Shown in pieces: positions 7,481 to 45,872 of a stretch of DNA of 64,000 nucleotides (position 1 is its first letter; the number at the start of each line of letters is the position of its first letter). The stretch is from Schmidtea polychroa (lineage: Eukaryota), in the NCBI GenBank assembly GCA_044892525.1, contig CM097885.1, forward strand, positions 18,664,001-18,728,000, written 5' to 3'. The translations under genes were made by a program, and so were the position numbers. A model generated the notes under the pieces. It was given only the letters and a program-made list of their open reading frames with translations, did not search any database and had not been told where the DNA came from.

Positions 7481-7575
7481 TTTGTTCCTATGAACAATAA
7501 TAATCTATAAACAATAATAATCTATAAACAATAATCAATCATTAGTCACATTTAACAAATAGTTAACCTTTAAAA

Positions 7576-8136: not shown

Positions 8137-8335
8137 TAAAACTTATTTTATATGTCCCGTATGTAAGACTAGTGACCCCGTAACATATAGCGTTTTTTAT
8201 AATAAACATAAAAATCATTTAGATAGGTTTAATTTTAAAAAAGATAGTGTTTTTAAAAGACCCTCAACTATAGAAAAAAATAATAAAAATTAAAAAATTA
8301 AATTAGATACTTCTTCTTTTGAATCCCAGGTCGGA

Positions 8336-11917: not shown

Positions 11918-12104
11918 TTTTATTGAATAAATTTTATATCTTTACATTTGTTATTTGGTAAATTTTTATGTTTGTTATGTGTCTAGTTCATTTTTATGTG
12001 TTTAGTTAATGTTTATATGTTTTGTTATGTGTCTAGTTATTTTTATGTGTTTAGTTAATTTTTTATGTGTTGTATAGTATTTGGTTGATATATTATTAAT
12101 ATTA

Positions 12105-12163
<59 letters not shown>

Positions 12164-12399
12164 TCATAAAAATTTTCATTAAAAATTATCTTAAAAATTA
12201 TTCTATTAAAATTTCCATTAAAAATTACCATTGAAAATTATTCATAAAAATTTCTATTAAAAATTACTTAAAAAATAATTCATTAAAATTTCCATTAAAA
12301 AATTTCAATTCTCAAACACCTTCTATTTTTGTTAATAAATTTAAAAATCTTACTTTAATTTACTTATTACATTACTTTAATTTACTTATTTAAAAATTA

Positions 12400-12625
12400 T
12401 TACTTTAATTTTAAAATTTTTGACCTTAATTAACTTTAATTTAATTTTTAGAACCATAATTTACTTTAATTTTAAAATTTTTGACCATTATTTACTGTAA
12501 TTTAATTTTTAGAACCATTATTTACTGTAATTTAAAATATTTGGACCATTATTTACTTTAATTTAATTTTTTAGAACCATTATTTACTTTAATTTAAAAA
12601 TTTGGATCATAATTTACTTTATTTT
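12400..12625. repeat. ~30-bp subterminal tandem repeat (GACCATTATTTACTGTAATTTAA...), same family as the element 2 arrays
   Basis: Direct sequence match to 39170-40630. Confidence 0.85.
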
Positions 12626-13064
12626 AAAAATTTACTATGCGTTTTTTAATGTAAACCACCTTTTCTATTGAAATTCTCATGACCAAGAAGATCCCCTCAC
12701 TATAGTGTGAAAAATCCATGCTTTTTTATTGAAGACTACCTTTTTCTATTGAAATTCTCAGGACCAAGGAGACCCACCCAAATAATATTTATCCTTGGCT
12801 TGTTTATTGAAAAAAAAAAAAAAAAAAAAAAAAAATTTGTATTTAAAATCCCAGAAAACATTGGGCATTACGGCAACAATTATGTAATCAAAAAATGTCT
12901 ACGGAAAAAGTTATGCAATCAAAAGTTTGCAACATTTTTTACCCCCCCCCTATTGCTGCCGTAAGCCACTAACTACCTCCTATGATAATATTTTTTTAAT
13001 TTCATTTTGTGAATTTTTTAATTAAATAAACATATTTATAGTAATAATCAAGCAACATTTACAC

Positions 13065-14775: not shown

Positions 14776-15559
14776 CATTTTTTTATTTTAAACATCTTTT
14801 ATAAGTGTGGTCAATAATATAAATGGACTTGATTAAAAGAAAAGTTACAAATTTATAATTCATCTTTTTATAAAAAATATATTTTAAATATAATAATAAT
14901 AATTTTTTTGTTTTATAGTATTGTTCGGTTATTCTTAAGTTATTAAAAGTTTGAGATTAGTTTTCATGGATTACATGTAATATTGAAATAACTTTATGTA
15001 ATCATGACCCTCAAAATCTCGAATATGATATGAAGGGGTTTAAGGCTTATGTTCATATATCGTCCTTTTTACTTTTTACTAATTTGTTGGAAGATACATT
15101 TAAAAATAATATGAATGGCATGCAATAAACTAAATAAATTATTATAAAATTATTATAAAAAAATAATATTTTACTTAATTTATGTCAACGAAAATAAATA
15201 ATTATTTATTAAAATAAAAAATTCGAAAAAATAATTTTAATATTCAACTTCCGTGTAAAATAGCAATAAATTTTTGACATAAAATATTCACAATGAATGA
15301 ATGGATTGTCTCATTGACTATCAAAAAAGAGAAGATTAAAAAACATAAATTATATCATTTAAAATAATTTTAACCAATCAAACAATTGAAAAGAATAATG
15401 TTAACATTAATCTCCTTGGTAATATTGAAAGAGGTACATTTATTTAGATTTTTTTGTTTTAATCCAATTGGTTACATGTAATCCAATACAAACAAAACAA
15501 TCTTTCAGATATTTCCCCTCAAATATTTGAATCATATTTTTTTTAATTTTACTCCTCCG

Positions 15560-16801
15560 ATGTTGTTCTATGAGTTTTCTAATTCTTGTTCGGAAAATCT
15601 CACGAACGCAACCGTCGACGAAATGGTGTTGCGCTTTAAAACTCAAGAATGGTACTTGATGTTGGCAATTCTTCCTGTCAGTGTTTTGGCATTTTTAGCC
15701 AATTCAATTTCTTTGATAATCTTTTCAAAACAATATTTTGACAATAGTGCAGTTAAATTTAATTTGGTATCAATTTCCGTTTCGGAAATCGTTTTGCAAT
15801 TAGTTGTTGTTTCGGAGGTCATCATAGTGTTAGGAGGTGTGGAGGATGTATGGAAATGGAAAGAAATGCTGACTACCTCTGTAATCCATATGTCTCTAAA
15901 TGCTATGTTTTCAATTCGTAATTGGAATGTCGTCCTTATATCTGTTGCAAGGTGTGAAGTGGTAATTAGTCCACTTTCCTTGCGAGGCAGACTTATATTT
16001 AATAAAATTGTCCTAAGAATTCTAACAACATTAATTATTGTAATATCTGTTGTCCTTGCCTGTTTAAATATTCTAAAAGATAAAGGAATTATTTGTGTAA
16101 ATTTAGATTGGTTCGTCACAATAGTTGGATTTCTGAATCAATTTGAAGCTTATAGTTATTTTGATATTTACGGGATCTTTATGTTCCAATCATGTTTGCC
16201 TGTAATTTTCATTTGTATTTCAACTTTCATAATTGGTTTCAAACTGAGAGAAACTCCAATGAAAAATAAGCTTCTCTCTAAGGGTCCATTTCTATACAAA
16301 GACAACGGAAAGGTTTCCAAACAAAAGATTCCTAAATCCTCGAAATTCTACAACAGAGGAATTTTCAAACCAAAATTCCAACCTCTTCAACCCAATGTAT
16401 CAGCAATTACCGATGAGAACCGTAAAGGAAAGCTAATATCTTCCATTTCTTTAATCAAAAACCGTATTCGGACAAGTTATTTGGTTTTGTTCTTGTCATT
16501 GATGTTTTGTTTGCTGCAAATCCCCACATTCATCATTACTTGTGTCCTCAGATTTCATCCAAATCTTGATTTTGAAATCCACCCAGATGTATTTTCCAAC
16601 AGTTTATTGGTAATAGATTCCTTTTTGAATTTTTTTGTTTATGCCGCCAGCAGCAAGAAATTTCGGTATTCAGTTCTGAGACTCTTTGAAAGATTTTGGT
16701 CGAATTCAAAATCTGATACAATTAAACGACAATATCTCAATTCAACTGTGCTGGAGAAGTGTAACAGAGCGGATGAAAATTCAAATATTTCCCCTGAATG
16801 A
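15560..16801 (+). CDS. Intronless class A (rhodopsin-like) GPCR, peptide-receptor-like orphan
   Basis: Seven hydrophobic segments, N-terminal N-glycosylation sites, TM1 AN, TM3 ARC (DRY variant), TM6 FCLLQIP, TM7 NFFVY and helix 8 FR. First ATG is at 15560 (the ORF track starts at TTG 15527). Confidence 0.88.
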   Translation: MLFYEFSNSCSENLTNATVDEMVLRFKTQEWYLMLAILPVSVLAFLANSISLIIFSKQYFDNSAVKFNLVSISVSEIVLQLVVVSEVIIVLGGVEDVWKWKEMLTTSVIHMSLNAMFSIRNWNVVLISVARCEVVISPLSLRGRLIFNKIVLRILTTLIIVISVVLACLNILKDKGIICVNLDWFVTIVGFLNQFEAYSYFDIYGIFMFQSCLPVIFICISTFIIGFKLRETPMKNKLLSKGPFLYKDNGKVSKQKIPKSSKFYNRGIFKPKFQPLQPNVSAITDENRKGKLISSISLIKNRIRTSYLVLFLSLMFCLLQIPTFIITCVLRFHPNLDFEIHPDVFSNSLLVIDSFLNFFVYAASSKKFRYSVLRLFERFWSNSKSDTIKRQYLNSTVLEKCNRADENSNISPE

Positions 16802-19140: not shown

Positions 19141-21104
19141 TTAATATCAACACAGATTATATATTGCATTTATTAAAATATTGACTATAAACCAGTAAAG
19201 ATATCGATGTTTTTTTTATATTAACAAATTTTCGACACAGACTTTTTCAAATAAAATAAACACGCGATAAAACACACTGTAGTGCCTCTGACTTCCACGT
19301 TAATAAAAATATCAACTTAATAATTAAACTTTAAATATATTCTTAAATAAACTCGGTAAAGATTTTATTAATAAAAATCGCCATTCGTACATCTTTTTCA
19401 CTATATATTTCGATAGTTATATAGTTATTCATTCGTTGTGAATGTAGTTTACCTGATGATGATAGTGGTGCTATCGAAATATATAGTGAAAAAGATGTAC
19501 GAATGGCGATTTTTAAATATATTATTAAAGTAATTAATTCAAAATTATTCATTCAAAATACTTTATAAAACAATTCGAACATCATTAAAATCAATAAAAA
19601 AAATATGCTAAACATTCGATAAGTTGAAACCTTTGTTTTCCTAGCTGCGATTTCTCTGTTGATGAGTTTGATCATTCTATTCAACCAAAGAAATTTTTTT
19701 AGAATACTAATTCGCGATTCTAGTGATTCTCATGATAAAGTTCGTTATGAGAGCCGGACTGACCCATCCTCTTTGATAAACAAAAATTATCTAAGGAAGA
19801 TGCACTTATTTTTATGCAAATCTAAATGAACTTGGAAAACATTTTCGATGCTATCATACTCTAAGAAAACTTTCATTTTGAGAAAGCTAAGAAAATTGTT
19901 TGTGAGTTTTAATTGTATATTAATAATAATAATTACCATATTTAAAATTTTTTTTAATTTTTTTTAAAAAGAAAGTTTGAACGATTTACTTGATAAATCT
20001 TTAAATTTTGTTAATATTTTTTTTAATTATTTAATAATTTTAACAATTAAAAATAACAATTAAAATCCACAGCAAAAGCATCCAGTAATTTAGAATGTAA
20101 AATTTTCAAAATTTGATAAAAATCTGCATAATAATTTGTAAAAAAAAGATATTTACTCATTTTTTTGGATGTAAATACTGGCAATACACTTCATAAAGCT
20201 TTTATATTTTACAACGCGGTGTAGCAGATTGAATCTGAAAGTGGTGCATCGTTTTTTGATGTTTTAATAAATTAAATTAAAAATAATAAAATGTTATTCC
20301 TTTTCCACGTTCACGTTAATGATTGTCGGTTAACGGTTAATTAACTTTTTGTTTTAATAGTTGGAATTGACTATAAAATTGTGAGAAATAGGAAAAGTGA
20401 GTTTACATTAAATTATCGATTTATTAAAATATTTTACTGGATATTTACAAATAAATAATTATTTATATTTTTTAGATCTGTGGTTTAAACAAAATATTTT
20501 GTCTTTGATTTGAAATGAAACAAATTTCAAGGAAACGAAGCTTCATAAAAATAATCACTTATGAAAATTATTATAATGTTTTTTGCAGTATAAAATCTGT
20601 AAATGAACAACCTGATGATCCCACCACATACACAACCTTCCTTCCATAAAGATCAGTCTGTGAGGTTTGTTGTGGTGATATTTGTATGTTTAGTAATTTT
20701 TTGCTTTGAATATTTTTATATATAAATCTATTTTCTGTAGATAAATATGATTTGTCACAATAGACAAGCTATCCTCTTTTGTTCTTTTCAAAAGAACGGG
20801 AAAACCCAGACATTCACCTTGCTCACTTTCCCAACGGCATATTTTTGCGTTTGATGTGTTGAGCTTGTTTTTGAATGTAATGCAACTTTTTAATGATTAC
20901 ATTTATATAAGTTTTATTTATTGTTTTAATATGCATTTTCTTTTACGTATTAGGGTAAGAATAGATTCTGTCATATATTAAACAGGTAATTTTGCTTAGA
21001 AATATAAAAACACTTGTTGCGAATAAATCACAGGTTTTTTTATTACCACTTGTTTTTATATCACTCATTAATTACATAGGATGTTTAGATTGGTAAAGAT
21101 GTGA

Positions 21105-22000
21105 GTGAATAAAGTACATTTACGACATTCTATGCTGTATGAGTGAAAGGAAGCCACTCACTAGTTACGTGTCGAAACTTGTATGAAGTATTTGGAAGAG
21201 ATTTTGTAAATGTTCTTACTTACCAAAGATGGTTTGGGGCATAATCCACATTTAACAACTACGGAAGTTGCAAAAGAGTTCGGTATTCATTATACAACTG
21301 TTGAAGACCATATTAAATCTCTTCAGTTTGTCTAAAAGCAAAGCATTTGGATCCAACACGAATTGACCGAAAAGAATTAATTTGATCGTGTAAAAATGTG
21401 CTTATCACATCTCATTAAACACAATGTGGAGTCGTTTTTTACGGCTGATCATTGGAGGTGAACATTGGATATTATACGTGAATAATAAGAGAAGAAAAGC
21501 TTACTGCAAACCTGGAACATTATCAGCAACTCTTGCAAAGCAAAAGTACTGCTCTGTTTGTAGTTGGATAATGAATGTATTACGAGTTTCTGAAACGTGA
21601 GGAAACTGTCAATGCGAATTGGTATTGCACCCAGGTCAATAAATTACATATATCAAGTAAGCAAAGCTACTATTAGCGTCCAGAAAAGGAATCGTAATCA
21701 ACCATGATAAACCAAAACTACATACTTCAATGGTGACACAACAAAAACATAATCCGTTGGGATAAGAAATTCTTAGCCATCGACTTTATTAACCTGACAT
21801 TGCTCTATCAGATTATTATTACATATTCAGATCTCTGTAAAATTATCTAACAATAAAAATATTGCATTCTTTTAAAAGTGTTTCTAAGGCAGCTGCTGAC
21901 TATTTTCATTCCAAAGACTAGAACCTTTACTGAAGAGGAATTGACAAGTTACCTTAACAATAGGAACAGGTTTTTACAGATAATGGAAATATATCACTGA
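21105..22000 (+). pseudogene. Decayed mariner (DD34D-type) transposase
   Basis: Fragments TTTEVAKEFGIHYTTVEDHIKSL, WIQHELTEKN, ETVNA..YC, HD..HTS.VT and PDIALSDYY..FRSL, with many stops and frameshifts. Confidence 0.85.
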
Positions 22001-22721
22001 AAGCAGTTGGTAAGGGACCCGCTAATTCACATACCCGGACCCCTTCCCCAAAAAAAGATTTTTTAATTATGTAGGTCAACTGAATAATTGTGTAGTTCAA
22101 CTGAAATTTTATGATTTTTTACGATTTTCAAGATTTTTCTCGTTATTTGAAGTTTTTATGTTAATTTCACCCACTTGAGCCCTTTAATATATCAATTCTC
22201 TTAAAATCCATAGAAAATTCTTCAAAATATGAATTTTATTTAATTGTTACAGTCACAAAACATTCTTTTATTGAAATAATTTAGTAGCTAAAGTCATGTA
22301 GTAAGAGCCCACTAAAAGATCAAAATTCACTAAAATCAATATTTTCTACAAATATTTCACCACACTTACCATCAAATACCTAAATAGAGATGATAATTTC
22401 TCATTGATTGATCATAATTCTTCATCGATTCAGCCAATTATAGCAATTATAACATGATATATCTTTCAAACTAAATCACAAATTTCAGTATAATATGATT
22501 TCAAATATATCATCATGATAAAATTAGTTGGTTTCAACTTTAGATTTTCAATATTTAAAAGTTCATCAATGTGTAAATGGAAATATTCTTAGAAAATATA
22601 TGAAAAAATTATTTAGTCAAATTCAATATCATTACAAAGTCATCATAAAAATTAAATTAAGAGTTGAATCAGCAATATTGTATATTTACCTGGCGCGAAG
22701 TGAAATCTTCGCGTCTCCTGC

Positions 22722-26642: not shown

Positions 26643-27751
26643 CTGTAAAATCTCGAGTATATATTTCAAAACGTATTTGCTGCAGAGATGGTTTTTAACA
26701 CATTAACTGCACAATTTACATTGAAGGGACACAGTATTTTATTGGCCAAGTAGCAAAACGTTTTTGCAATAAAATAAATAAAAAAAACAATTATTATTAA
26801 TTTTCACTGTAGAATACACAACGAAAAGACTCTAAAAATATATTGTGATTTTAAAATCACCAACCAATCATTGATAAACAAATGTGACAATAATAATATG
26901 AAAAATCATTATATAGAATTAATTTCATATTTAATTGCGAATCGTATACGATGCACAATACATGTGTTTTTTAGCATTGCGGCGTTCAACGTGTTAATAA
27001 TAACAATTTTATATTGATTGATTACATCGTAAGTGACTATTTTCTGCAATATTTTCTGTAATTCTTAAATCACCGATGACAAATTGCCAACGATAGTGGA
27101 TCAAAACAAAAGAAACAGGAAAGATCTTTCATTTCAGTAAAGAAAAAGGAAATTATTGAAGTAACTTGTCAATTAAGAAACAAATGGGAAGTTGCGTGAT
27201 GATATGATATCAACAAAACTGTTGTTCGATGGTCAATCGCTCAAGACCCTTTTATCAAAGCAATTTATCCAAATCGAAAAGTCCTATGTGGTGATAACGC
27301 TAGATATCCGAAATTGAAAACGAAATTACACAAATGGATGCTAATGCAACATGAACAAGAACTTCGAGTACTACTTATACAAATTCAATTACAGGCACAT
27401 GCTAATGCCAAAGAAACGATGACTGAATAATTTATCGCCAACTCTCAATAAGTTTAGAACCATCATCAATGGTTTGAATAAAGATTTGACCAATACTCAA
27501 ATCGGAAATTTTGATGAAGTGTCCGTTCAATATGGCATACCATTATGATATACAGTTGAAACTAAAAGTGCCTTGATGTTTGAATTAAAACTACAAAATA
27601 CGAGTAAAACATTTTTTCTGTTAATTTTTGTTTACTCAAAGATGGTGCTAAATTTCCACTTTTTGTTATTTAGGACAGAAAGACACTTTCAAAGACTTGC
27701 ATTCCTCAAGCAAAGCCTATTGTTGCAACCAATGAATATCATTGCCACCTA
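26643..27751 (+). pseudogene. pogo/Tigger (CENP-B HTH + DDE_1) transposon fossil, continuing at 41101-41160 after the element 2 insertion
   Basis: TIR-like TA|CTGTAAAATCTCGAGTATA, ARYPKL..KLHKWM, IGNFDEV and DGAKFP. After the insertion it reads TIISVISYGL, similar to the AVIPGGL motif. Confidence 0.75.
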
Positions 27752-27859
27752 AGTAGGTAGATAGTGGCCCACTGCAACAATTACCCCCCTCCCCCCCCTA
27801 GAAAAAAAATTTTTGCAACTCGCATTTTTTGTTGCAACTTTTTATTACGCAATTGTTCC

Positions 27860-28210
27860 ACACTATAGTGAGGGGGTCTCGATGGTCCTGGGATTTTCAA
27901 TACAAAAAAATTTTTTCAATACAAAAATCCGATTATCACTAAAAAAGCATGGAATTTTCAGACTATAGTGAGGGGGGGGGGGGGGGGGGGTCTCGATGGT
28001 CCTGGGATTTTCAATACAAATAAAATTTTTTCAATACAAAAATCCGACTACCACTAAAAAAGCCAAGAATTTATCAGACTATAGTGAGGGGGTCTCGATG
28101 GTCCTGGGATTTTCAATACAAATAAAATTTTTTCAATACAAAAATCCGACTACCACTAAAAAAGCCAAGGATTTATCAGACTATAGTGAGGGGGTCTCCT
28201 TGGTCCTGAG
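27860..28210. repeat. ~110-bp subterminal repeats (ACTATAGTGAGGGGGTCTCGATGGTCCTGGGATTTTCAATAC); inverted counterpart at 40690-40990
   Basis: Units visible by eye. Related sequence at 12660-12780. Confidence 0.85.
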
Positions 28211-28249
28211 AAAAAGGTGGTCTACACTAAAAAACGTGGTAAATTTTTT

Positions 28250-28800
28250 CAATTAAAGTAAATAATGGTTCTAAAAAATTAAATTACAGTAAATAATGGT
28301 CCAAAATTTTCAATTACAGTAAATAATGGTCTAAAATTTTCAATTAAGTAAATAATGGTCCTAAAAATTGAATTACTGTAAATTATGGTCCTAAAAAATT
28401 AAATTACAGTAAATTATGGTCCTAAAAAATTAAATTACAGTAAATTATGGTCCAGATTTTTCAATTACAGTAAATTATGGTCCAAATTTTTCAAATACAG
28501 TAAATTATGGTCCAAATTTTTCAATTACAGTAAATAATGGTTCTAAAAAATTAAATTACAGTTAATTATAGTCCTAAAAATTGAATTACAGTAAATTATG
28601 GGTCTAAAAATTGAATTAAAGTAAATTATGGTCCAAATTTTTCAATTACAGTAAATTATGGTTCAAAAAATTGAATTACAGTAAATTATGGTCCAAATTT
28701 TTGAATTAAAGTAAATTTTGGTTCTAATAAATTAAATTAAAGTAAATTATGGTTCTAAAAAAATTAAATTAAAGTTAATTAAGGTCCAAATTTTAAAATT
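28250..28800. repeat. ~30-bp tandem array, left arm of element 2
   Basis: AATTACAGTAAATTATGGTCCAAATTTTTC-type units. Confidence 0.9.
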
Positions 28801-29054
28801 AAGTAATCAATGGTAAAAAATTTTAAATAAGTAAATTAAAGTAAATTAAAGTAAGATTTTTAAATTTATTAACGAAAAGTTGAAATAATAGGTGTTTGAG
28901 AATTGAAATTTTTTAATGAAAATTTTTATGAAATAATTTTTTAAGAAATTTTTAATGAAATATTTTTCAATGGTAATTTTAGATGGAAATTTTTAAGATA
29001 ATTTTTAATGAAAATTTTTATGAAATATTTTTCAAAGACAAATTTTAATAATAA

Positions 29055-29750
29055 TTCAACAACAAACCAACAACCAGTAACTTACGAACATGTATTAACA
29101 ACCAGAGACCTACAACCAGTTACCTGATACCAAGTACCAACAACCAAAAACATGCAACCAACTAGGTACCAAGTACTAACAACTAGCTACCACCTACCCA
29201 TTAACTAGCTACTAAGTACTAACAACCAACAACAACCAGGTACTAAGCATTATTAACCACCTACTAAGTACCGACAATCAGTAACTTACGAACATGTATT
29301 ACCAACCAGATACCTACAACTAGTTACTAACAACCAGTTACCTGATACCAAGTACTAACAACCCACAACAATTAGCTAACAACTAACTACCACCTACCAA
29401 GTACCTACAACCAATAACAACCAACTACTAAGTACTAACAACCAAAAACAATCAACTAGGTACTAGATACCAAGTACTTACAACAAACATCAACCAAGTA
29501 CCTACAACAACCTACCAAGTACTTACAACCAACATCAACCAGATACCTACAACTAGACACCAACAACCAGTTACCACCTACCCAATCACTAGCTACAACC
29601 AGCTAACAACTAACTACCAAGTACATACAACCAACAACAACCAAGTACTAAGCATTATCAACCAAGTACTAACAACCAAGTACAAGATACCTAGTACTAA
29701 CAACCCGCTAACAACTATATACCAAGCACTTACAACCAGATGACCACATG
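29055..29750. repeat. Strand-biased ACAACC/TACTAAC mosaic repeat; inverted, expanded counterpart at 37580-38870
   Basis: Shuffled short motifs (ACAACC, AGTACTAAC, TACCTAC). Confidence 0.85.
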
Positions 29751-32469
29751 AAATTATTGGTTAAATATGAAAATAATGGTTATAATTAGTTGTTAAGTAA
29801 ATTATGGTGTAAAATTAAGAAATAAAGAATAATTAGGAAAATTAGGATATATTAAGGAAAATTAAGGTTCAAAATTTAAAATTAAGTAACCAATGGTTCA
29901 AATTTTAAATTAAAGCTAAATGAGTAAATTAAAGTAATAATTTTTAAATAAGTAATGTAATAAGTAAATTAAACTAAGATTTTTAAATTTATTATCAAAA
30001 GATTGAATAACCACCAACTTTTTTGAGAAATGTAATTTTTAATGAAAATTTAAATGGAAATTTTTTTTTAAGTTAATTTTAAACGTCATATTTTTTAAAT
30101 AGAAATTTTTAAGTTAATTTTTTAAGTTATTTTCAATGAAATATTTTTCAAAGTCAAATGAAAATTTTAATGGAATAATAATAATAATAATAATAAAAAT
30201 AATCATAATAATAATAATAATAATTCAACAGTTCCCAACAATCGGATACTAAATATTTTTAACTAGGTGCTAACAAATAAGTACAAAAATACTTACAACA
30301 TGATACCACGTACTAACTAACTCTCAAACAACCACATACTTACAACTAACTACTTACACTCAACTAAAATTAATATTTTTTATACAGCTTCTATAATAAT
30401 TTTAATTACAATCAGTAGAAAAACCTTTTCAAATGTAACAAAAATGTTGATTTTCATCAAAAAACCACAACTCAATCACTTTAAAACACCAAGTGAAATT
30501 CAAAATAATTTAAATTAGAATGAAAGACTAATGAATTCTAATTTACAAAACATTCTTCTTTTAAATGATAACTACTGACTTATTATTGCAAAGTAAAAAT
30601 CACATTCAATAAATACTTATTGTTGATCAGTTTTATTATATATACTCTGAGTTTATCCGACAGGATGTTTTGACCCTCTAAGGGTACTGGTCGTAAGGGT
30701 ATTAGTCGTAGGGGTACTGGTTGTAAGGATATTGCTAACACTCAACCCCCACCTACCCATTAACTAGTTACTAAGTACTAACAACCAGCTAGCAACTAAA
30801 TACTAAACACTAACAACCACCATCAACCAGATACTAAACATTATCAACCTACAACTATATAACAACAATCAGTAAACAACACTGTACCAACTACCAAATA
30901 CAAGATACCAACAACTTAGTACCAACAATCAACTAACAACACATAAAAATAATAGCAATTAAATACAAAATATTCTTCATCGCATACACTATTTTCTTAT
31001 CAAAATCTAAAAAGTCAACCAACTACTAACAACCAACAACTATGTACTAACAAATAGATCTTTAAAAGCAAATACTCATCACTTGAAAAATTAGATGGAA
31101 AATTATTTGAACTCAAGGCATCAATAACTAGGTAAAAATTGATTAAATTATTGTAAAAAATTTAAATTATTCAAAATAAATATCATAAAAATTTAAATTA
31201 TTCAAAATAAATATCATAAAAATTTAATTAATGGACAAGAAAAAATTCTAATCATTAATCATCAAGTAAATAAAAAAAAATACTGATCATTCAAGTTGAA
31301 TCAACTAAGATAATAAATTAATAAAATTTGAAACAAAATCTAGTAGATAATTGATTTAGATTGAATAAATTAATTGAAATAAATTAATTTTAATTATTTA
31401 TTTTTAAAGTAATACATGTACTCAAATTGATTGACTGATTTCTCAATATATTCAAAAAATCAGTATAAATTCATTACAATTATCAAAGTCATCAATCTAC
31501 AATAAAAATAATTATCATTAAATTCCAAAAGAGACTAGATAGCTAATGATAACATCTAACAAACCAGTAAATTCATTTAAATGACAACAATTGGTATATT
31601 CAAGTGAATTCTCCAATAAAATCATCTAAAAAGAATCATTCCCCCCCTAAATATATCAATATTTAAAGAATTGTATTTTAATGATAGGTACTTGTTAAAG
31701 ATCATATATTCACCTCAAACTAATAAGATTCCTTAAAATCCCTTAAATGACTATATTTCAACCCTTAATTCATATTATTAAAAATATCATCTAAAAAGCA
31801 TCAAATTTCCTTGAAATAACTCTATCCTTAAAGATTGATATTTTAATGATAAGTACCCGTAAAAGATCATATACTCCCCTCAGACTAATAAGATTGCTTA
31901 AAATCCCCTTTAAATGACTATAATTCTAACTTTAATTCCTATTATCATACATATTTCGCTATTGATAAAACCAGTTATAATTAAATTATTTGTTAATCAC
32001 TGTACTCGATATTTTAAATAAATATTACTGTACAATATAACTGACTAGGTCCTATTGAAAGATTAAATTTATCCATTCAATAAAATATATTTCTTCAAAT
32101 GATCATTTTTACCAATATTCAACCGATTTAATTACTAATTAAAATCAATCGATAGATTTCTTTCAATAAAGATCAATTTTATTTAGTCAATGTTTTAAGT
32201 CCATATTTCTCAACTTTTGTCGTTGTCCGTCTAAATAAAGATAAAAATAATTTAAAGTTGATATCAATCCCAATTATCTGTACGGATTTCATTGTCAAAA
32301 CCAAGTAAATCGATCATTATCCCTACTTAATAAAACATTGTTCTAAATTAATTTACTGTGCATTAATCACAACCTAATAAAACGATATAATTTCACATTA
32401 TTATTGATACATAACTGACTAATGTATTGCAATTTCCTTAAAAACATTGATATTTTACCAACATCACCC

Positions 32470-32710
32470 TTAAAAAATCATATATTCCCATCTTAACCCA
32501 TCTCTCATTAAATTTAACCGACTATATCTCCCTTACAATGATATATTCCCATCTTAACCGATCTTTCATTACATTTAACCGACTATATCCCCTTAAAAGA
32601 TCATATTTTCCCCATCTTATCCGATCTCTCATTAAATCTAACCAACAATATCCCATCTTAACCGATCTCTCACCAAATATTTCTACCCCTTTAAACATCT
32701 AACCGAATAT
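32470..32710. repeat. CCCATCTTAACCGA..CTCATTAAATCTAACCGACTATAT repeats; inverted counterpart at 34400-34765
   Basis: Several imperfect tandem units near the inner end of each arm. Confidence 0.8.
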
Positions 32711-35700
32711 ATCCTTCAATTCTACCCACTTGACTCCTCCTTTAATTCAATTCAGTCTTAAAATCTTTAAAGAACTTCAAAAATATGACTTAATTGTTAA
32801 AGACACCAGGCATTCTTCCATTGAAATAATTTAGAAGCTAAATAATAAGAGCCCACTAACTAATCAAAATCATGGAAGGGCAGGGGAAAAAATATATTAC
32901 GTCGCGGTATTTTAAAATTAAAATTTATTTTAAAAACACATTTTGACGCTAAAGTCGACTTATGTAACAAAGATATAATAAACTCATTATTTCCTACAAA
33001 TATTTACCATCAAATACTTAACTAGAGATGATATATATTGTTTGATCATTATTCTTCATCGATTCAGCCAATCATTTTCAATCACTGTCAGCAAACTAAA
33101 TTTCTGTATATCCTACAATAATTATCAAGTAAATTTAAAGTCCCTGATAAAGTTAACTGGTTTCTTAGCTTATGTTTTTTAAAGTTCATTAATGTGTAAA
33201 TATTCTTAGAAAATTATTGAAAAATTATTTAGTCAAATATATTACAAAGTTATCATCAAAAATTTATTCTATCACTTAATTATTAACCTAATTGTCAATG
33301 AAATTAATTTTTATTTTAAAACTATTCAATAAAATACAACTAATTATCAAGAAATTAATTAAATTTAATTAAATTTATCACCATTAAAACTTTAAATTTT
33401 TAATCAGTCAACATGAAATTCTTAGAAAATTATTCAATATCCTCATCAAAATTTATCCTATCACTTGATTATTGTACAAACTTTAATTATTAACCTCATT
33501 AAAAATAAATTTTTATTTAAAATTAAAAAACCAATCAATAAAAATACATTCAATTATCAAGAAATTAATTAAATTTACCTTAGAATTAGCATTAAACTAG
33601 TTTATTACATAACAAGCCGTGACTAGTTTATTACATAACAAGCTGTGAATGGTATTTTTATGTTATGTAATAAACTAGTTTAAATTACATATCCTCCTCA
33701 CTCTATTTCCCACTATGTATTCACTTATATCCCCCCGATTTTCCACTATTTAATCACTTATATTCCCCGATTTTCTACTTATATTCCACCGATTTTGATT
33801 AATTATTCCCCACAAATATTTCTTTTTTTTTATTAAATTTATAAATTTTATGAAATAATTTTAAATAAATTCAATTAATATATTTCCATTCTTATCAACC
33901 TTCATTTTATCTATGCCACTTCTCAGTATTTACCTCTCATGATCCATTAATGAATTATTCTACCAATTATTTTCACCCATTTGAATTTATCATCGAGTAA
34001 TGAATAATTTCCTCACTTTAATGGTGATTCTTACCACCTTCATTGTTAATTTTATCAAAGTTTAAAGAATATTTCTCTTTTTATCCTACAATTGCTTACC
34101 ACTTTAGATTTTTTATCGAAATTTATGATAATTTGACTAATTCAATGAAAAATTTGAATTGGTTTTATTATATATACTTTGAGTTTATCCGACAAAATAT
34201 TCTGTCCCCCTATGGGTATTGCTCACAAGGGTACTACTCACATTCAACATGTCGTAAGGATATTAGTCGTAAAGGTATTTAATGCTTTTATTTGAATGAT
34301 TATTTAGGCAAATTTGTTTGCATTCATTGATAATTTTTAGGATTTTAAGAGGATTGACTGAATTAAAGGAGGATTCAAGTGGGTAGAATTGAAGGATATA
34401 TTTGGTTAGATGTTTAAAGAGGTAGAAATATTTAATGAGAGATCGATTAAGATGGGAAAATATGATCTTTTAAGGGAGATATAGTCGGTTAGATTTAATG
34501 AAGGATGGGTTAAGATGGAAATAGATCATTGTAAGGGAGATATAGTCGATTGACTTTAATAAGAAATCGGTTAAGATGGGAATATATGATCTTTTGAGGG
34601 GATATAGTCGGTTAGATTTAATGAGAGATCAGATAAGGTGGGAATATATCATTGTAAGGGAGATATAGTCGATTGAATTTAATGAAGGATGGGTTAAGAT
34701 GGGAATATAGTCGGTTAAATTTAATGAGAGATGGGTTAAGATGGGAATATATGATTTTTTTAATGGTGATGTTGGTAAAATATCATTGTTTTAAGGGAAA
34801 TTGTAATTAGTCAGTTATGAATCAATAATAATTATATCGTTTTATTAGGTTGTGATTAATTCATTGTATATTAATTTAGATTTATGTTTTAGAACAATGT
34901 TTTATTAAGTAGGGATAATGATCGATTTACTTGGTTTTGACAATGAAAACTTTACAGATAATTGGGATTGATATCAACTTTAATTTATTTTTATCTTTAT
35001 TTAGACGGAGAATGACAAAATTTGAGAAATATGGACTTAAAACATCGACTAAATAAAATTGATCTTTATTTGAAGAAATCTATCGATTGATTTTAATTAG
35101 TAATTAAATCGATTGAATATCGGTAAAAATGATCATTTGAAGAAATATATTTTATTGAATGGATAAATTTAATCTTTCAATGGGACCTAGTCAGTTATAT
35201 TTATTTTAAATTTCGAGTACACTGATTAACAAAAATTTAATTATAACCAGTTTGATCATTAGATTTTATAAATTATTTAGGGTTAATGACCAAATTATTT
35301 TACATGTTTTATAGGGAAATATTCGTGATAATATGAATTAAAGTTAGAAATATAATCATTTAAAGGGGATTTTAAGCAATCTTATTAGTCTGAGGTAAAT
35401 ATATAACCTTTTAAGGATATTTATCGATAAAATACTAATCTTTAAAGATAGAGTTATTTCAGGGAAATTTGATGCTTTTTAGATGATATTTGTAATAATA
35501 TGAATTAAGGGTTGAAATATAGTCATTTAAGGGATTTTAAGGAATCTTATTAGTTTGAGGTGAATAAATGATCTTTAACAATTATTTATCATTAAAATAT
35601 TAATCTTTAAATATTGATATATTTAGGGGGAAATGATTCTTTTTAGATGATTTTATTAGAGAATTCGCTTGGATATACCAATTATTGCCATTTAAATGAA

Positions 35701-37044
35701 TTTACTGCTTTTTTAGACGTTATCATTAGTTATCAGTCTCTTTTGGAATTTAATGATAATTATTTTTAATGTAGATTGCTGACTTTGATAATTGTAATGA
35801 ATTTATACTGAATTCTTTGAATATTTTGAGCAATCAGTCAATCATTTTGAGTACTTTTAAAAAAATAATTAAAATTAATTTTATTTCAATTAATTTATAC
35901 AATCTAAATTATCTACTAGATCTTATTTCAAAGATTTTTATTAATTTATTATCTTAGTTGCTTCAACTTGAATGATCAGTATTTTTTTTATTTACTGGAT
36001 GATTAATGATTAGAATTCTTTCTTGTCTATTAATTAAATTTTTATGATATTTATTTTGAATAATTTAAATTTTTTACAATAATTTAATCAATTTTTACCT
36101 AGTTATTGATGTCTTGAGTTCAATTAATTTTCCATCTAATTTTTCAAGTGATGAGTATTTGCTTTTAAAGATCAATTTGTTAGTACATAGTTGTTGGTTG
36201 TTAGTAGTTGGTTGACTTTTTGGTTTTGATAAGAAAATAGTGTATGCGATGAAGAATATTTTGTATTTAATTGCTATTATTTTTATGTGTTGTTAGTTGA
36301 TTGTTGGTACTAAGTTGTTGGTATCTTGTATTTGGTAGTTGGTACAGTGTTGTTTACTGATTGTTGTTATATAGTTGTAGGTTGATAATGCTTAGTATCT
36401 GGTTGATGGTGGTTGTTAGTGTTTAGTATTTAGTTGCTAGCTGGTTGTTAGTACTTAGTAACTAGTTAATGGGTAGGTGGGGGTTGAGTGTTAGCAATAT
36501 CCTTACGACCAGTACCATTACGACCTGTACCCTTAGGGGGTCAAAACATGCTGTCGGATAAACTCAAAGTATATATAATAAAACTGATCAACAATAAGTA
36601 TTTATTGAATGCGATTTTAAATTGCAATAATAAGTCAGTAGTTATCATTTAAAAGAAGAATGTTTTGTAAATTAGAATTCATTAGTCTTTCATTGTAATT
36701 TAAATTATTTTGAATTCCACGTGGTGTTGAGTTGACAATTATTCATTTTTGATGAAAATAAACATTTTTATTAAATTTAGACATTTTGAAAAGGTTTTCC
36801 ACTGATTGTAATTAAACATATTTTTGAAGACATATAAAAAATTAATTTAAAAAGCATTTCATAAAATACAATAAAGAATATTTAGTTGGTTGTTAGTACT
36901 TGGTTGTTTTTACTTGGGTGTTTGAGATTTAGTTAGTATGTGGTATCATGTTGTAAGTATTTGGTACTTATTTGTTAGCACCTAGTTAAAAATATTTAGT
37001 AACCGATTGTTGGTAACTGTTGAATTATTATTATTATTATTTTA

Positions 37045-37126
<82 letters not shown>

Positions 37127-39169
37127 TTATTATTCCATTAAAATTTCCATTAAAAATTAACTTAAAAAATATTTCATAAAAATTTTCATTAAAAATTATC
37201 CTAAAAATTATTCCATAAAAATTTCTATTAAAAATTACGTAAAAAATCATTTCATAAAAATTTTCATTAAAAAATTTCAATTCTCAAACACCTTCTATTT
37301 TTTGTTAATAAATTTAAAAATCTTAGTTTAATTTACTTATTACATTACTTATTTAAAAAGTATTACTTTAATTTACTCATTTAGCTTTAATTTAAAATTT
37401 AAACCATTGTTTCCTTATTTAAAATTTTGAACCTTAATTTACTTATTTAAAATTTTTAACTTTAATTTACTTATCCTTAATTTGCCTATTTATCCTTTAT
37501 TACTTAATTTTACACCATAATTTACTAAACAACTAATTATAACCCTTATTTTCATATTTAACCAATAATTTCATGTGGTCATCTGGTTGTAAATGTTTGG
37601 TATCTAGTTGACAGTGCTTAGTACTAGGTAAGTTACTTGGTTGTTAGTACTTGGTTGATAATGCTTAGTACCTGGTTGATGTTGGTTGTATGTACTTGGT
37701 ATCTAGTTGTTAGTAACTAGTTGTAGGTAATTAATGCTTAGTACCTGGTTGTTGTTGGTTGTTAGTATTTGGTAGCTAGTTGGTTGCATGTTTTTGGTTG
37801 TTAGTATCTAGTTGTAGGTACTTGGTATCAGGTAACTGATTGTTAGCTGGTTGCTTTTGATTGTTAGTGCTTGGTAGGTGGTAGTTAGTTGTTAGCTGGT
37901 TGTTGTTGGTTGTAAGTACTTGGTAGGTGGTAGTAGGTGCTTAGTAGTTGGTAACTGGTTGTTAGTTCTTGGTATCTAGTACCTAGTTAGCTGGTTGTAG
38001 CTAGTTAATGGGTAGGTGGTAGCTAGTTGTTAGCTGATTGTAGCTAGTTAATGGGTAGGTGGTTGTAGGTACTTAGTAGTTGGTAACTGGTTGTTGGTAT
38101 CTAGTTGTAGGTATCTGGTTGAAGTTGGTTGTATGTACTTGGTATCTAGTTGGTTGTAGGTGGTAATTAATGCTTAGTACCTGGTGGATGTTGGTTGTAT
38201 GTACTTGGTAGGTGGTTGTAGGTACTTAGTAGTTGGTATCAGGTAACTGGTTGTTAGTAGCTAGTTGTAGGTTGATAATGCTTAGTGTCTGGTTGTTGAC
38301 GGTTGTTAGTACATGGTATCTAGTTGTTAGCTGGTTGTTAGTACTTAGTAGCTAGTTAATGGGTAGGTGGGGGTTGAGAGTTAGTTAGTACGTGGTATCT
38401 AGTTGTAAGTACTTGGTAGCAGGGAACTGGTTGTTAGTATCTAGTTGTAGGTATCTGGTTGATGTTGGTTGTAGGTACTTAGTAGTTGGTTGTAGGTACT
38501 TAGTAGTTGGTTGTAGGTACTTAGTAGGTGGTAGTTAGTTGTTAGCTGGTTGTTGTCGGTTGTTAGTTCTTGGTATCTAGTTAATGGGTAGGTGGTAGCT
38601 AGTTGTTAGTATTTGGTAGGTGGTAGCTAGGTGGTTGTAGGTACTTAGTAGTTGGTAATTAATGCTTAGTACCTGGTTGTTGTTGGTTGTTAGTACTTGT
38701 TAGGTGGTTGTTGGTAATTATTGCTTAGTACCTGGTTGTTGTGGGTTGTTAGTACTTGGTAGGTGGTTGTTAGTACTTGGTATCAGGTAACTGGTTGTTA
38801 GTAACTAGTTGTAGGTATCTGGTTGTAACTACATGTTCGTAAGTTACTGGTTGTTGGTTTGTTGTTGAATTATTATTAAAATTTGTCATTGAAAAATATT
38901 TCATAAATATTTCCATTAAAAATTAACTTAAAAAATTATTCCATAAAAATTTCCATTAAAAATTAACTTAAAAAATATTTCATTAAAATTTCTATTAAAA
39001 ATTACTTAAAAAATTATTTCATAAAAATTTTCATTAAAAAATTTCAATTCTCAAACACCTTCTATTTTTTGTTAATAAATTTTAAAATCTTACTTTAATT
39101 TACTTATTACATTACTCATTTTTAAATTATTACTTTAATTTATTTATTTAAAATTTTTTACCATTGATT

Positions 39170-40630
39170 ACTTAATTTAAAAATTATTACTTTAATTTAC
39201 TTATTTAAAATTTTTTACCATTGATTACTTAATTCAAAAATTTGGACCATAATTTACTGTAATTCAAAATTTTTGACCATAATTTACTGTAATTTAATTT
39301 TTTAGGACCATAATTACCTTATTTGAAAAATTTGAACCTTAATTTACTGTAATTTAATTTTTTAGGACCATTATTTACTGTAATTCAAAATTTTTTACCA
39401 TAATTAACTGTAATTTAATTTTTTGAACCATTATTTACTTTAATTGAAAAATCTGGACCATAATTTACTGTAATTGAAAATTTTGGACCATTATTTACTG
39501 TAATTGAAAATTTTGGACCATAAATAACTGTAATTTAATTTTTTAGAACCATTATTTACTTTAATTGAAAAATTTGGACCATTATTTACTGTAATTTAAT
39601 TTTTTAGGACCATTATTTACTGTAATTCAAAATTTTTGACCATAATTTACTGTAATTCAAATTTTTGACCATAATTAACTGTAATTTAATTTTTTAGAAC
39701 CATTATTTACTTTAATTGAAAAATCTGGACCATAATTTACTGTAATTGAAAATTTTGGACCATAATTTACTGTAATTCAAAATTTTTGACCATAATTTAC
39801 TGTAATTTAATTTTTTAGGACCATAATTACCTTATTTGAAAAATTTGAACCTTAATTTACTGTAATTTAATTTTTTAGAACCATTATTTACTTTAATTTA
39901 AAAAATTTGGACCATTATTTACTGTAATTTAATTTTTTAGGACCATTATTTACTGTAATTCAAAATTTTTGACCATTATTTACTGTAATTCAAAATTTTT
40001 TACCATAATTAACTGTAATTTAATTTTTTGAACCATTATTTACTTTAATTGAAAATTCTGGACCATAATTTACTGTAATTGAAAATTTTGGACCATTATT
40101 TACTGTAATTGAAAATTTTGGACCATAAATAACTGTAATTTAATTTTTTAGAACCATTATTTACTTTAATTGAAAAATTTGGACCATTATTTACTGTAAT
40201 TTAATTTTTTAGGACCATTATTTACTGTAATTCAAAATTTTTGACTATAATTTACTGTAATTCAAATTTTTGACCATAATTAACTGTAATTTAATTTTTT
40301 AGAACCATTATTTACTTTAATTGAAAAATCTGGACCATAATTTACTGTAATTGAAAATTTTGGACCATTATTTACTGTAATTCAAAATTTTTGACCATAA
40401 TTTACTGTAATTGAAAATTTTGGACCATAATTAACTGTAATTTAATTTTTTAGAACCATTATATACTTTAATTGAAAAATCTGGACCATAATTTACTGTA
40501 ATTGAAAATTTTGGACCATTATTTACTGTAATTTAATTTTTTAGGACCATAATTTACTGTAATTCAATTTTTAGGACCATAATTTACTGTAATTGAAAAA
40601 TTTGGACCATAATTTACTGTAATTTAAAAA
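39170..40630. repeat. ~30-bp tandem array, right arm of element 2 (expanded)
   Basis: GGACCATAATTTACTGTAATTGAAAATTTT-type units, the reverse complement of 28250-28800. Confidence 0.92.
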
Positions 40631-43104
40631 ATTTACCACGTTTTTTTAGTGTAGACCACCTTTTTGTATTGAAGTTCTCAGGACTAAGGAGACCCACCTC
40701 ACTATAGTCTGAAAATTCCATGCTTTTTTAGTGGTAGTCGGATTTTTGTATTGAAAAAATTTTTTGTATTGAAAATCCCAGGACCATCGTTTTTGTATTG
40801 AAAAAAATTTTTTGTATTGAAAATCCCAGGACCATCGTTTTTGTATTGAAAATCCCAGGACCATCGAGACCCCCTCGCTATAGTGTGAAAATTCCATGCT
40901 TTTTTTATTGAGACCGCCTTTTTCTATTGAAAAAATTTTTTTGTATTGAAAATCCCAGGACCATCGAGACCCCCTCACTATAGTGTGGAACAATTGCGTA
41001 ATAAAAAGTTGCAACAAAAAATGCGAGTTGCAACAATTTTTTTTCTAGGGGGGGGGGGGGGGTAATTGTTGCAGTGGGCCACTATCTACCTACTCACCTA
41101 AGACACCATGAAACCAAAATCCAAAAGTACCATCATATCTGTTATTTCATATGGATTGCTCAAATCTCGTCACTACTAAACTTGATAAAGTTGAATGTTT
41201 GGTTCTGTTAGTTTTTGTGGCGTCTGTGTGCGTGTTGCTGAGGTTTTTGCTAGTTGAGTGCTGTGTGCGCACAGAGACGCGAGGTTCTCGAAATTAATTC
41301 GAGTTTTTTGAAATTATTTATTTTATAATTATTTCTAGTTCTGGAATTTTTGTTTCTTTAAATTGGTTTTGTTGTAAATTCAAATTGTAAAGATTAATAA
41401 AAGTTTTTTATTCGCTGGAATTAGTTATTCAATTACATCGAAAATTGTTTAATAGAATTAGTTATAAAGGAATTTCGTGCAGAATATCATGACTATATGA
41501 TCAAATATGAAGTTTATTTACGGTATTTAATTGTAAAATGTGAAGAATCATAACAATTAGAATTGGTAAACGATAAAAATCAAATAAATATTTAAGCGAA
41601 AGGTTTAATTGAATACTCAGACAGCGAAGACAATGAAATTCAAACTAATGATGACATTTCAAACAATAGCCCAGTAAAATCTGAAGAAATTGCACCTGAA
41701 ATTGTATTTTCGAAAATAGAAGAGACTGAAGAATATTTATTAATTAAAACAAATCAATGGATGACTGAACCGGTTGATGAAGCAGAAAAGTATTTGAAAT
41801 CGATTATTAAAAAGAGGTCAGAAACGCTCAAAAACAAAATCGAATTTCTAATTTACGATGGATAATAATCTAAAAGACATTTCGATCCAAGTTAAGGTAT
41901 CTTTGCGAACGGGTTTGGCAGAATCTTTGATAACAATTTATCAGTTGAGAACGATTTCATGGCAGATATTAAAGGATTCAAATAAGGTCTCCGGTATTTT
42001 GGAGATGTGAACAATTTTTATTAAGACAAGGATATTTATTATTTAGGAAAACCAAGATGTCCTGTTCCTTCCAATCCATTTATTACAAATTCTATATATC
42101 AATAAATATTTTTGTTTCATTAAGTGTCGTTCGTGAATTTGGGATACCGTATTATCTTACAGAATAAATTAACTTACAATAAAGATCTTTAAGCCTAACA
42201 TTTTATCTCTCCAAATGACTTATAGGCCGTTTGTCTGATATCTACAAAATATCTTATTAATCCTTATTAATCTATTTTTAGAGAATTTGCAAAACTGATA
42301 CATTAAAACAAAATTTACTTTATCGACTTTTCTTTTCAGACTACAGATCAATATTTTGTTTTATTTCTAACATGGAAATTTGAGCTAAATATAAAAAATA
42401 ATTTTTGTCTGCGATTGGGATAATCAATGAAAAAAGGATAAAAGATTTTCCTGAATGAATTTAATTCTTAAAATATTAATGAGAAAAAGAAATTAAATAT
42501 TTTCGATACAAAATGATGTTTGACTCTCACAATTGTTGGCGGCAAGCACCGACAAAAACTTTTACAATAGACAAATTAATTTTTCAACGCAATCTCACTA
42601 GATGTATATAAATTCGGATTAGGGAGAATGACAGACAGTTGGAATCAGCTTTTATGCGCTAATGTCTTTTTATTAGGCGGTTTCTAATCGGAGATTTATT
42701 ATAATAAAATACAATTTTAGAAATTTCATTTATTTTTATTATGACAAAAGATCGAAAATTTATGTTACATAAATTGTTGCATAAATTGTAAATTTTATTT
42801 ATAAGTTTTGAAAATGTAATATTGTTATAGAATTTCGAAAAGTGACAAAGTCCAAATAATAAATGACAGGGAAAATGACAAAAAATATTTCCATTTTTTC
42901 CATATTCGAAGATTTTTCTCGAAATGTTTCATAAAATACGTGTTTATGAAAATTAATTTGCTTTTTTAAATGAATAATTTATCTAACTTACTTTAAATTG
43001 AAATATTTCCACAAATAAAATAAATAAATTTCTGAAAATGTAGAAAAATTAATAATAAAATGACTGAAATCGAAAATGATTATTCATCACGTTGATTTAC
43101 GCAC

Positions 43105-44261: not shown

Positions 44262-45872
44262 TATAGTGGAAAACGAGGAAAATCTATACACTTACTTGGG
44301 GGTCTCAATAGGAAATACAAAAAAACGACCTAAATGAGATCTTCCAAGAAGTGGAAGCCAAAACAACAAGCATTTTCAAATCACTCCTAAGAGCTCAGCA
44401 AAAGCTAGAAGCCTACAACACCTTCTGTCACTCGAAATTCATATTCATCTTGCAAGCTGACGAAGCTCAAAAACACAAGCAGAAAAATTTGATGATAAAA
44501 TAAGAATGATGATAAAAGATAAAGAGGTGCTGAATCTGCAACAGAAGAGCCCACTAATGGATACCAACTTTTACTCCTTTAAGGAAAAAGGAGGAATAGG
44601 CATAACCAAAATCGTGGATGAGCAGATGATACAAACCATAGCAACATTCCTAAAACTAATAAACAGCAACCCCACGGCTATAGTAAAAATTATAACAAAA
44701 GAACTGATCGATGTAGCCGAAACAAGAACTGAAACTCCTATCAACTCAATACCAGAAGCATTAAAATGGTTGGATGGAACATATGCACATAAAAGATCAA
44801 GCTCATCCAAAAAATCCTGGCTCGATAGAATCAAAAACGCAATCACACAGCTGTACAAGGACCACGATATAAAGATAACCTTTCTAATAAGAAATATAGG
44901 TGAGAAATATAGGAGAAATATAGGATGCAACATAAAAATCAATTCACAAGAAAAACCCGAAGAAGTTTTTCCACCCTTTCTAGATGAAGCCTCAAAAAAA
45001 CTACACTGGATGATTCGTTAGGCATACTTTCAAAAATGGACACAGGCCAACTGCCAAGGCCATATTGTTAGATTGCCGCAGTACGAATACACAAAATGGA
45101 AAATGCCGAAAAACCTGAAAGACTACGAATGGAGATTCATAATTAAGGCTCGAGCCAACATGTTAGACATAAATATGAAACAGTCTAACCAGGAAGGCAG
45201 ATTAGGCAGCACAAAGTGCAGAAACTGTGAAAATCCTCACGAGTCATCTATACACATCCTAAACATGTGTGTGAGAGGAACCAGTATGAGGACCAACAAG
45301 CACAATGAAATACAAAAAACACTGGAAGAAATACTAAGAAACAAAGGAATCAGTTTTGAAATAGAGGAAAAACCAAAAGAAGCAAAAGAAATGTTAAAAC
45401 CAGACATTGTAGCCAGACTAAAAGATAACATCATGATAATAGATGTAAAATGCCCATTTGATGACCATCCAACCATAGAAGCATCAAGAACAAAAAACCA
45501 GAACAAATACAGAAAATTAGCACAAGACATCCAAGAAGCAACAAACACATACACAACAGTAGAAACATTCGTGGTATGCTCCCTTGGAACATGGGACAAA
45601 CACAATAACGATATATTTAGAAAACTCGGATTCAGATATGAAGAGTACATGCCCATAAAGAACAAAATGATAAACAGAGTGATTAAAGGCTCCAGAAAAC
45701 ATATAAAAATCATCGGGGCTTCTATCAATAGCACAAGTTAAAAGAAAATGGATGATTATGCCCGCATCCCTAAAAAGGCATACATGAATATTAAACACCC
45801 CATACAGTAGCTCGCCTACTGTATTTGGCCTGGCATATTTATTATGCTGATTCATTTTTCATTAATAAACTT
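44262..45872 (+). mobile_element. 5'-truncated RLE-type non-LTR retrotransposon (R2/NeSL-like group) with an internal stop at 45019
   Basis: YTYLG and GGIG RT-thumb motifs, CCHC knuckle CRNC..HESSIHILNMC, KHNEI, and restriction-like endonuclease KPDIV...IIDVK...K..KY. The 3' UTR ends at AATAAA (~45864). Confidence 0.9.

Follow-up and report, generated by a model that had tools for sequence, protein, structure and literature searches.

A 13.3-kb gene-less palindrome with Polinton-type ends in Schmidtea polychroa, a candidate copy-back passenger of the Polinton lineage

For Polintons, an abundant class of virus-like elements, replication is not known to have been observed directly. The present analysis concerns a 64,000-nucleotide stretch of the Schmidtea polychroa genome (GenBank assembly GCA_044892525.1, contig CM097885.1, positions 18,664,001 to 18,728,000 of the forward strand), referred to as the window and numbered from its first letter, which is rich in transposons and has a GC content of about 25 %. 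It harbours a large foldback element, here called element B, that carries no genes, is flanked by a 6-bp target-site duplication (TSD) and interrupts a decayed pogo transposase gene, and whose ends recur in a polymerase-coding palindrome, element A, about 15 kb away at the beginning of the window. B and its insertion site comprise the following features:

27023 to 27745, plus strand: 5' portion of a pogo/Tigger-type transposase gene that has decayed and is cut by B, recognised by homology of the flank
27746 to 27751, plus strand: left TSD copy, CACCTA, identical to 41095-41100
27752 to 41094, no strand: element B, gene-less foldback of 13,343 bp with AG...CT ends
27752 to 27921, plus strand: left tip of B, 170 bp, with 2 mismatches and no indels relative to the right tip; 14 of its first 16 bases agree with the end of element A
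27922 to 30225, plus strand: left-arm repeat zone of B, homologous to the subterminal module of element A (72-81 %)
30226 to 32771, plus strand: inner left arm of B, non-coding, array-free to 32460 and followed by 61-bp repeats
30621 to 31260, plus strand: patch nearly identical between the arms, likely a conversion tract (580 of 593 columns; Fisher p 2e-8 versus the rest)
32772 to 34334, no strand: spacer (loop) of B, 1,563 bp
34335 to 41094, minus strand: right arm of B, 6,760 bp, mirroring the left arm, its arrays being longer
41095 to 41100, plus strand: right TSD copy, CACCTA, identical to 27746-27751
41101 to 41195, plus strand: pogo frame resumed beyond B, in register with the part to its left

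The outermost sequence of B starts with AGTAGGTAGATAGTGG and closes with the reverse complement of AGTAGGTAGATAGTGG. At the base composition of the window, a direct match of 6 bp at the two borders would arise by chance with a probability of approximately 1e-4 for the hexamer CACCTA and of 9e-4 for any hexamer. Exact termini and this very TSD had been proposed in a preliminary description made from the sequence, and both were confirmed, although the interval given there (27746..41100) includes both TSD copies, while the element proper extends from 27752 to 41094. The arms, previously put at ~5.0 and ~6.8 kb, measure 5,020 bp (27752-32771) and 6,760 bp (34335-41094) and make up 88 % of the element. 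As to the terminal ~100 bp that had been described as nearly identical, the near-identity was correct and the length was not, since the conserved tip spans 170 bp.

Almost all of the 1.74-kb difference in arm length is due to tandem arrays, and the inner part that is free of them has a similar size on both sides (2,235 vs 2,250 bp). The repeat zone of the left arm is composed of ~100-bp repeats, a 30-bp array of 19.5 copies and 13-bp repeats, and further contains a C/A-rich degenerate array, a second 30/13-bp module and an (AAT)n stretch. In the right arm, the 30-bp array reaches 49.4 copies and holds a recent 605-bp duplication that is 99-100 % identical over ~300 bp. Because the tip of B folds no better than shuffled sequence (z -0.01, as compared to z -3.2 for the end of element A), a shared terminal hairpin is not claimed. 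The spacer itself contains, at 33592-33683, a small inverted repeat, exact over 23 bp, together with a tandem pair of 26 bp.

The identity of the interrupted gene was obtained by way of homologues of the left flank bearing a Tc5/pogo DNA-binding domain, which led to two full-length pogo-type transposases (P0133 and P0134, each with PF03221 and PF03184); direct Pfam scans put no name on the pogo pieces, a first homologue search with a pogo piece returned none, and the protein has no relative in the prokaryote genomes searched. Both transposases match 27023-27733 to the left of B and 41097-41195 to its right, where the right flank alone gives an E-value of 5e-13. Of the 13 junction registers tested, only the one in which B and one TSD copy are excised yields one ungapped block over both flanks (residues 270-306, score 129, with 118 for the next-best register); the empty site is thus a computed one as opposed to an allele seen in an animal. 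Just left of the TSD, some 21 pogo residues are absent, probably owing to a separate deletion, and the fossil stops ~95 bp past B, at about 41195. The earlier view that the insertion splits a pogo fossil is therefore upheld, as the flanks rejoin in register and without a gap when B is removed; B entered this fossil cleanly and as one unit, with a 6-bp duplication.

Within B, the longest stop-to-stop frame amounts to 132 amino acids (aa) and lies in a repeat array, and the number of open reading frames (ORFs) of at least 50 aa starting with ATG is at the level of shuffled sequence (5 vs a mean of 5.84 in 50 shuffles), in agreement with the earlier impression that no credible ORF is present. Polinton gene remnants were sought by tblastn with a panel of 448 proteins, consisting of 328 ORFs of at least 120 aa from 77 metagenome loci with related polymerases and of 120 polymerases. 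Thirty of the 328 panel ORFs, from six loci, were domain-scanned and included rve integrases (at least five), A32 ATPases and one double-jelly-roll capsid, with a protease unconfirmed. At E<0.01, this panel gave no match in B and a single one in the reversed-sequence control; specifically, B showed no match to an rve integrase, which was also missing elsewhere in the window at E<1e-4, nor to the packaging ATPase and capsid genes. A polymerase was detected in B neither by tblastn nor by a six-frame profile search, and Rfam and tRNA scans of the window returned no match. The possibility that decayed Polinton genes are hidden in the arms, raised in the preliminary description as a point that could overturn it, thus found no support from either the tblastn panel or the polymerase profile. 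B is gene-less and free of detectable Polinton gene remnants, with the proviso that very diverged ones could escape because the non-polymerase genes of the panel stem from distant relatives (31-35 % identity in the polymerase).

The affiliation of B is best approached through element A, whose parts are as follows:

1 to 12981, no strand: element A, a young palindrome with its left end beyond the window, ~14.1 kb if symmetric, with the same end type as B
3 to 3770, minus strand: Polinton-type family B DNA polymerase frame in the left arm of A, 1,256 aa from stop to edge, running off the window
5423 to 6452, no strand: centre of A, a ~1-kb unit (AGTAGT...ACTACT) with 63-bp imperfect inverted ends and flanks that are inverted, not direct
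8294 to 11917, plus strand: mirror polymerase frame in the right arm of A, with an in-frame stop close to 8,291, near the 5' end

The arms of A are 99.7 % identical (16 mismatches in 5,485 bp), and 9 of these 16 mismatches cluster within 63 bp in the middle of A, at the ends of the 1-kb unit (p 2e-14); outside the centre, identity rises to 99.9 % (7 mismatches in 5,422 bp). Such a centre would fit a fold-back primed at an older nested inverted repeat. Internal 21-bp repeats are also present in the 1-kb unit. The two polymerase frames of ~1,250 aa, one per arm, face outward, and 907 relatives of the ORF were found among 7,999 scored candidates, the best being 63 % identical and many carrying PF03175, whereas none occurred among the viral contigs searched. 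More distant relatives of the polymerase (31-35 %, on metagenome contigs) are accompanied by an rve integrase at five of six loci, by an A32 ATPase at three and by a double-jelly-roll capsid at one. The visible part of A is polymerase-only, with no integrase or capsid gene found by the 448-protein panel.

When up to two mismatches are allowed, the terminal 16-mer of B occurs at three sites in the 64 kb, namely at both ends of B and at the right end of A (none in 100 shuffles), A and B having 14 of these 16 terminal bases in common. Further inward, they share a subterminal repeat module of ~0.9 kb, and A 12091-12754 matches the subterminal arrays of B at 72-86 %. The link of B to the Polinton lineage is thus stronger than could be shown in the preliminary description, because a polymerase-coding palindrome possesses the same ends and subterminal repeats; the membership proposed there is supported by sequence held in common with A and not by TSD length alone. 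The 77 metagenome loci have no DNA in common with B, and three of them hold only short local inverted repeats, most being too short to reveal a palindrome. A terminal 17-base pattern seen at 26 viral-contig loci was treated as chance, as these loci bear no further likeness to the window.

Non-autonomous Polintons were reportedly described by Kapitonov and Jurka in 2006, and B resembles them in combining Polinton ends and a TSD with a lack of genes and in that it would need enzymes in trans; the gene-bearing Polinton-type element with which B has its ends in common, A, is itself incomplete. The name Polinton-1N1_DR appears in PMC9341505, in a passage that leaves its structure undescribed. For Mavericks, passages in PMC8097293 give 6-bp TSDs and (AG)3 or (AGT)2 ends, motifs that are defined for vertebrate Mavericks only; the ends read AGTAGG in B and AGGAGG in A, neither an exact copy of these motifs, and the central unit of A has AGTAGT...ACTACT. 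The 5'-AG...CT-3' termini of the Polinton lineage are found in B, as is its 6-bp TSD (CACCTA on both sides, with the pogo frame in register), and the 13-kb size lies within the range of 13-25 kb stated for Polintons/Mavericks in parts of PMC8097293 and bioRxiv 2023.08.22.554363. Unlike autonomous members, B is devoid of polymerase, integrase, ATPase and capsid genes, and its arms of 5.0-6.8 kb are far from the 100-1,500 bp that the same bioRxiv text (2023.08.22.554363), in the portion concerned, reports for Polinton terminal inverted repeats (TIRs). We infer that B is built of a single end present in two mirror-image copies, as opposed to a two-ended element with an internal deletion. In the literature searched, mostly at title and abstract level, giant gene-less Polintons of palindromic form were the subject of no title or abstract, so that an earlier description is possible.

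A direction of this duplication is suggested by the spacer and by a dispersed relative of it:

22163 to 22653, plus strand: relic C, a dispersed copy of B 32718-33264, identical in 371 of 436 aligned columns

Relic C attains a score of 301, as compared to at most 96 in 200 shuffles, and crosses the arm/spacer junction exactly as the left side of B does. The excess of C over G that marks the left arm persists in the spacer up to about 34,100-34,300, with the change of sign at about 34,200-34,300, and the spacer segment 34162-34239 has a direct paralogue in the left arm (30630-30707, 82 %) and shares its orientation. Because skew, paralogue orientation and relic C agree, the left arm plus spacer can be read as the parental end, which suggests that both formed one continuous piece of which the right arm is the copy-back. 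Just upstream of relic C, at ~22025-22065, a C-rich and then A-rich stretch resembles, by eye, the ends of these elements. With the window as the only library, B has no match in the remainder of this transposon-dense DNA beyond A and relic C. One short block is common to A 4397-4480 (also 7395-7478) and B 32856-32969 (91 % over 56 bp, exceeding 300 of 300 shuffles); a role as polymerase-promoter relic was considered and dropped as evidence of descent, since relic C lacks the block, and it is possibly a tiny mobile or regulatory module.

The two arms of B have diverged unevenly. In the array-free inner arm, 143 of 2,140 aligned columns differ (6.7 %), and the tip is significantly more alike than this (Fisher p 0.0016; binomial 7e-4). 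Inner-arm identity ranges from 97.8 % at 30621-31260 to 86.1 % at 30226-30560 (heterogeneity chi-square p 5e-10), the former patch exceeding 1000 of 1000 permutations at both 300 and 500 columns. The contrast between tip and inner arm fits a lineage that may still have been moving while its arms drifted; plausibly, though less firmly than in the preliminary description, mobilisation acted on a palindrome that was old by then, and we lean towards the view that most of the arm divergence would predate this insertion.

On these grounds we assign a probability of about 0.65 to the reading that B is a gene-less passenger of the Polinton lineage that apparently arose by copy-back, presumably replicated by way of a panhandle, and likely owes its insertion to an integrase supplied in trans. 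A strand-displacing, protein-primed polymerase would have started at one parental end and copied ~6.5 kb (left arm plus spacer), would then have switched to the new strand ~1.6 kb back, and would have recopied 5 kb to the end, leaving one origin in two copies. By analogy to adenovirus, the displaced single strand could anneal into a 5-kb panhandle that restores a duplex origin, whereupon the polymerase and integrase of other family members would copy and insert B. Later on, the arms would drift apart, with occasional arm-to-arm conversion (at the tip and at 30621-31260) and array slippage. Palindromic or hairpin derivatives of protein-primed replicons (phi29 and the yeast plasmid pGKL1) as well as copy-back defective viral genomes are known; unlike B, whose mechanism is deduced from sequence only, these are not known as integrated inherited repeats. 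Adenovirus replication through a panhandle is described in parts of PMC9863843, and the likeness to B lies in the inverted duplicate of one end, which provides two origins and a self-annealing single strand. A more far-reaching, and to us doubtful, extension is a two-tier Polinton satellite system, in which A would be a polymerase-only palindromic helper folded back at the ends of a nested 1-kb mini-Polinton, and B a gene-less palindrome with an extrachromosomal 5-kb-panhandle stage. If this were true, the patchy arms of B and the central mismatch cluster of A would preserve in the genome the traces of copy-back and of repair through a panhandle, and would offer a first in-vivo handle on Polinton replication, which has so far been modelled only by adenovirus analogy.

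Several observations weigh against the copy-back passenger. The window reveals no second full-length copy of B within its 64 kb, only the ~490-bp relic C, and this relic spans ~54 bp of the arm, so that its support for copy-back is modest. The ~110-bp inner block common to A and B, being absent from relic C, may be a separate small insertion and no sign of descent. As the end of A departs from that of B after ~30 bases, A is a relative and not the direct parent of B, and its polymerase has no direct match in Pfam or PDB, its identity coming from relatives and from motifs read by eye. The AGTAGG terminus of B is one base off the (AGT)2 of vertebrate Mavericks (as given in the passages of PMC8097293 cited above). 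With no integrase gene in the window and A being polymerase-only, no supplier of the enzyme is recognisable in the window. Finally, 11 % of the inner 170-column windows contain two mismatches or fewer and are as alike as the tips. Of the picture of the arms drawn in the preliminary description, the near-identical tips and diverged inner arms were recovered, but the tips carry less weight as evidence than was assumed there. Because arm identity is patchy everywhere and a share of inner windows is tip-like, a hybrid of two family copies or conversion in place has to be weighed alongside copy-back.

In the first case, the arms would come from two diverged family copies joined tail to tail, by a template switch between molecules or by transposition of a two-end hybrid, still with a Polinton integrase; a palindrome formed in this way could be young, with arm divergence that it inherited. 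Identities between 86 % and 98 % and the disparity of 19.5 and 49.4 array units fit mosaic subfamilies, and relic C shows that diverged relatives of the inner sequence of B exist. Against this, the subterminal module is internally duplicated in both arms alike, and their blocks follow one another in the same order as far as the 61-bp repeats; we regard a hybrid origin as rather unlikely.

Quite unlikely, too, is ageing in place, according to which a near-perfect palindrome such as A was inserted long ago and its arms diverged by mutation, slippage and intrachromosomal conversion. Conversion-like patches beyond the tips and the tip-like inner windows speak for it, the recent 605-bp duplication in one array testifies to ongoing local change, and an intact 6-bp TSD would be uninformative at ~3.5 % change per arm. 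Against it stand the exact tip, which belongs to the most alike class of arm sequence by the Fisher and binomial tests given above, and the fact that no nested insertion was seen in B with the window as library; in-place decay of a coding element is improbable because no gene remnant was found in B.

The Drosophila element FB is a foldback-like element with long inverted arms, and a third explanation would make B a classical Foldback like FB or Galileo, mobilised by a DDE transposase of the cut-and-paste kind, and would attribute its Polinton-like ends to convergence or capture. B does have the long, internally repetitive TIRs without coding capacity that characterise Foldback-like elements, and, as passages of PMC2775673 have it, Galileo was foldback-like in its first definition, by long, internally repetitive, non-coding inverted arms with near-identical tips, and was later shown to belong to the P superfamily. 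The likeness of B to Galileo, Newton and Kepler in that account (PMC2775673) extends to unequal arms and subterminal arrays on the 30-bp scale. Yet the Galileo TSD is 7 bp long, with the consensus GTAGTAC, as opposed to 6 bp in B, and the parts of PMC2775673 concerned further describe a P-superfamily transposase and arms of ~0.6 kb in tabulated copies; these foldbacks are not known to be linked to a self-synthesising polymerase. Since the ends of B are shared with a polymerase-coding element and not with a transposase gene, we judge a Foldback of this kind to be very unlikely. An assembly or whole-genome-amplification artefact (a fold-back chimera) is conceivable for A, with its arms 99.9 % identical outside the centre and its left end beyond the window, but is extremely improbable for B, as the copying of one molecule cannot produce arms that differ by 6.7 % and by indels, nor a TSD or a pogo junction in register, and as 11 public sequencing runs from four studies contain part of the flank, of the left arm and of the spacer. 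At least half of the 861 words sampled from these regions occur in six of the runs (two studies), although one may be the source sample; four runs with shares of 0.06-0.11 and one metagenome at 0.20 are given no weight as evidence.

Other parts of the window hold features apart from the two palindromes. An intact single-frame ORF of 439 aa at 15482-16801 (plus strand) matches peptide-receptor GPCRs (orexin, neuropeptide Y) weakly, with an E-value of 0.003, in keeping with an animal host, and received no name in a direct Pfam scan. At ~21000-22000, a mariner-like fossil is discernible by eye only; a candidate polymerase relic at 21525-21660 was rejected, as it rested on a weak tblastn match (E 2.2) within this apparent fossil, and a 61-protein check of 19500-22400 gave no rows at E<0.05. 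Past the pogo fossil, at ~41200-42100, lies a stretch that, by eye, resembles the 5' portion of a further decayed repeat and includes an acidic ORF. Two adjacent frames at 44461-45741 (plus strand) resemble, again by eye, the 3' end of a non-LTR retrotransposon with a restriction-like endonuclease, for which Pfam offered only a weak RmuC match, and a DDE_3 (Tc1/IS630-type) transposase fragment is located at 60310-60984 (plus strand; E 2e-17). Genetic code 6 gives long frames throughout this AT-rich window.

The Polinton life cycle awaits experiment, as is stated in a part of PMC5499653. Large palindromes with one end doubled, polymerase present or not, are the expected copy-back products of a protein-primed, strand-displacing polymerase, and such palindromes would be missed by design, because standard Polinton surveys, as described in portions of PMC8097293 and bioRxiv 2023.08.22.554363, demand both integrase and polymerase genes. 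The surprise is limited insofar as non-autonomous derivatives are to be expected for any transposon family. What this window would add is a pair of palindromes, one gene-less and one polymerase-only, connected by common ends, along with a computed empty site in register and putative fold-back traces of each. If such palindromes spread as families, one end would suffice for replication and integration, the cis-acting sequence would be mapped to ~170 bp plus the repeat module, and genome data alone would suffice to test the panhandle model.

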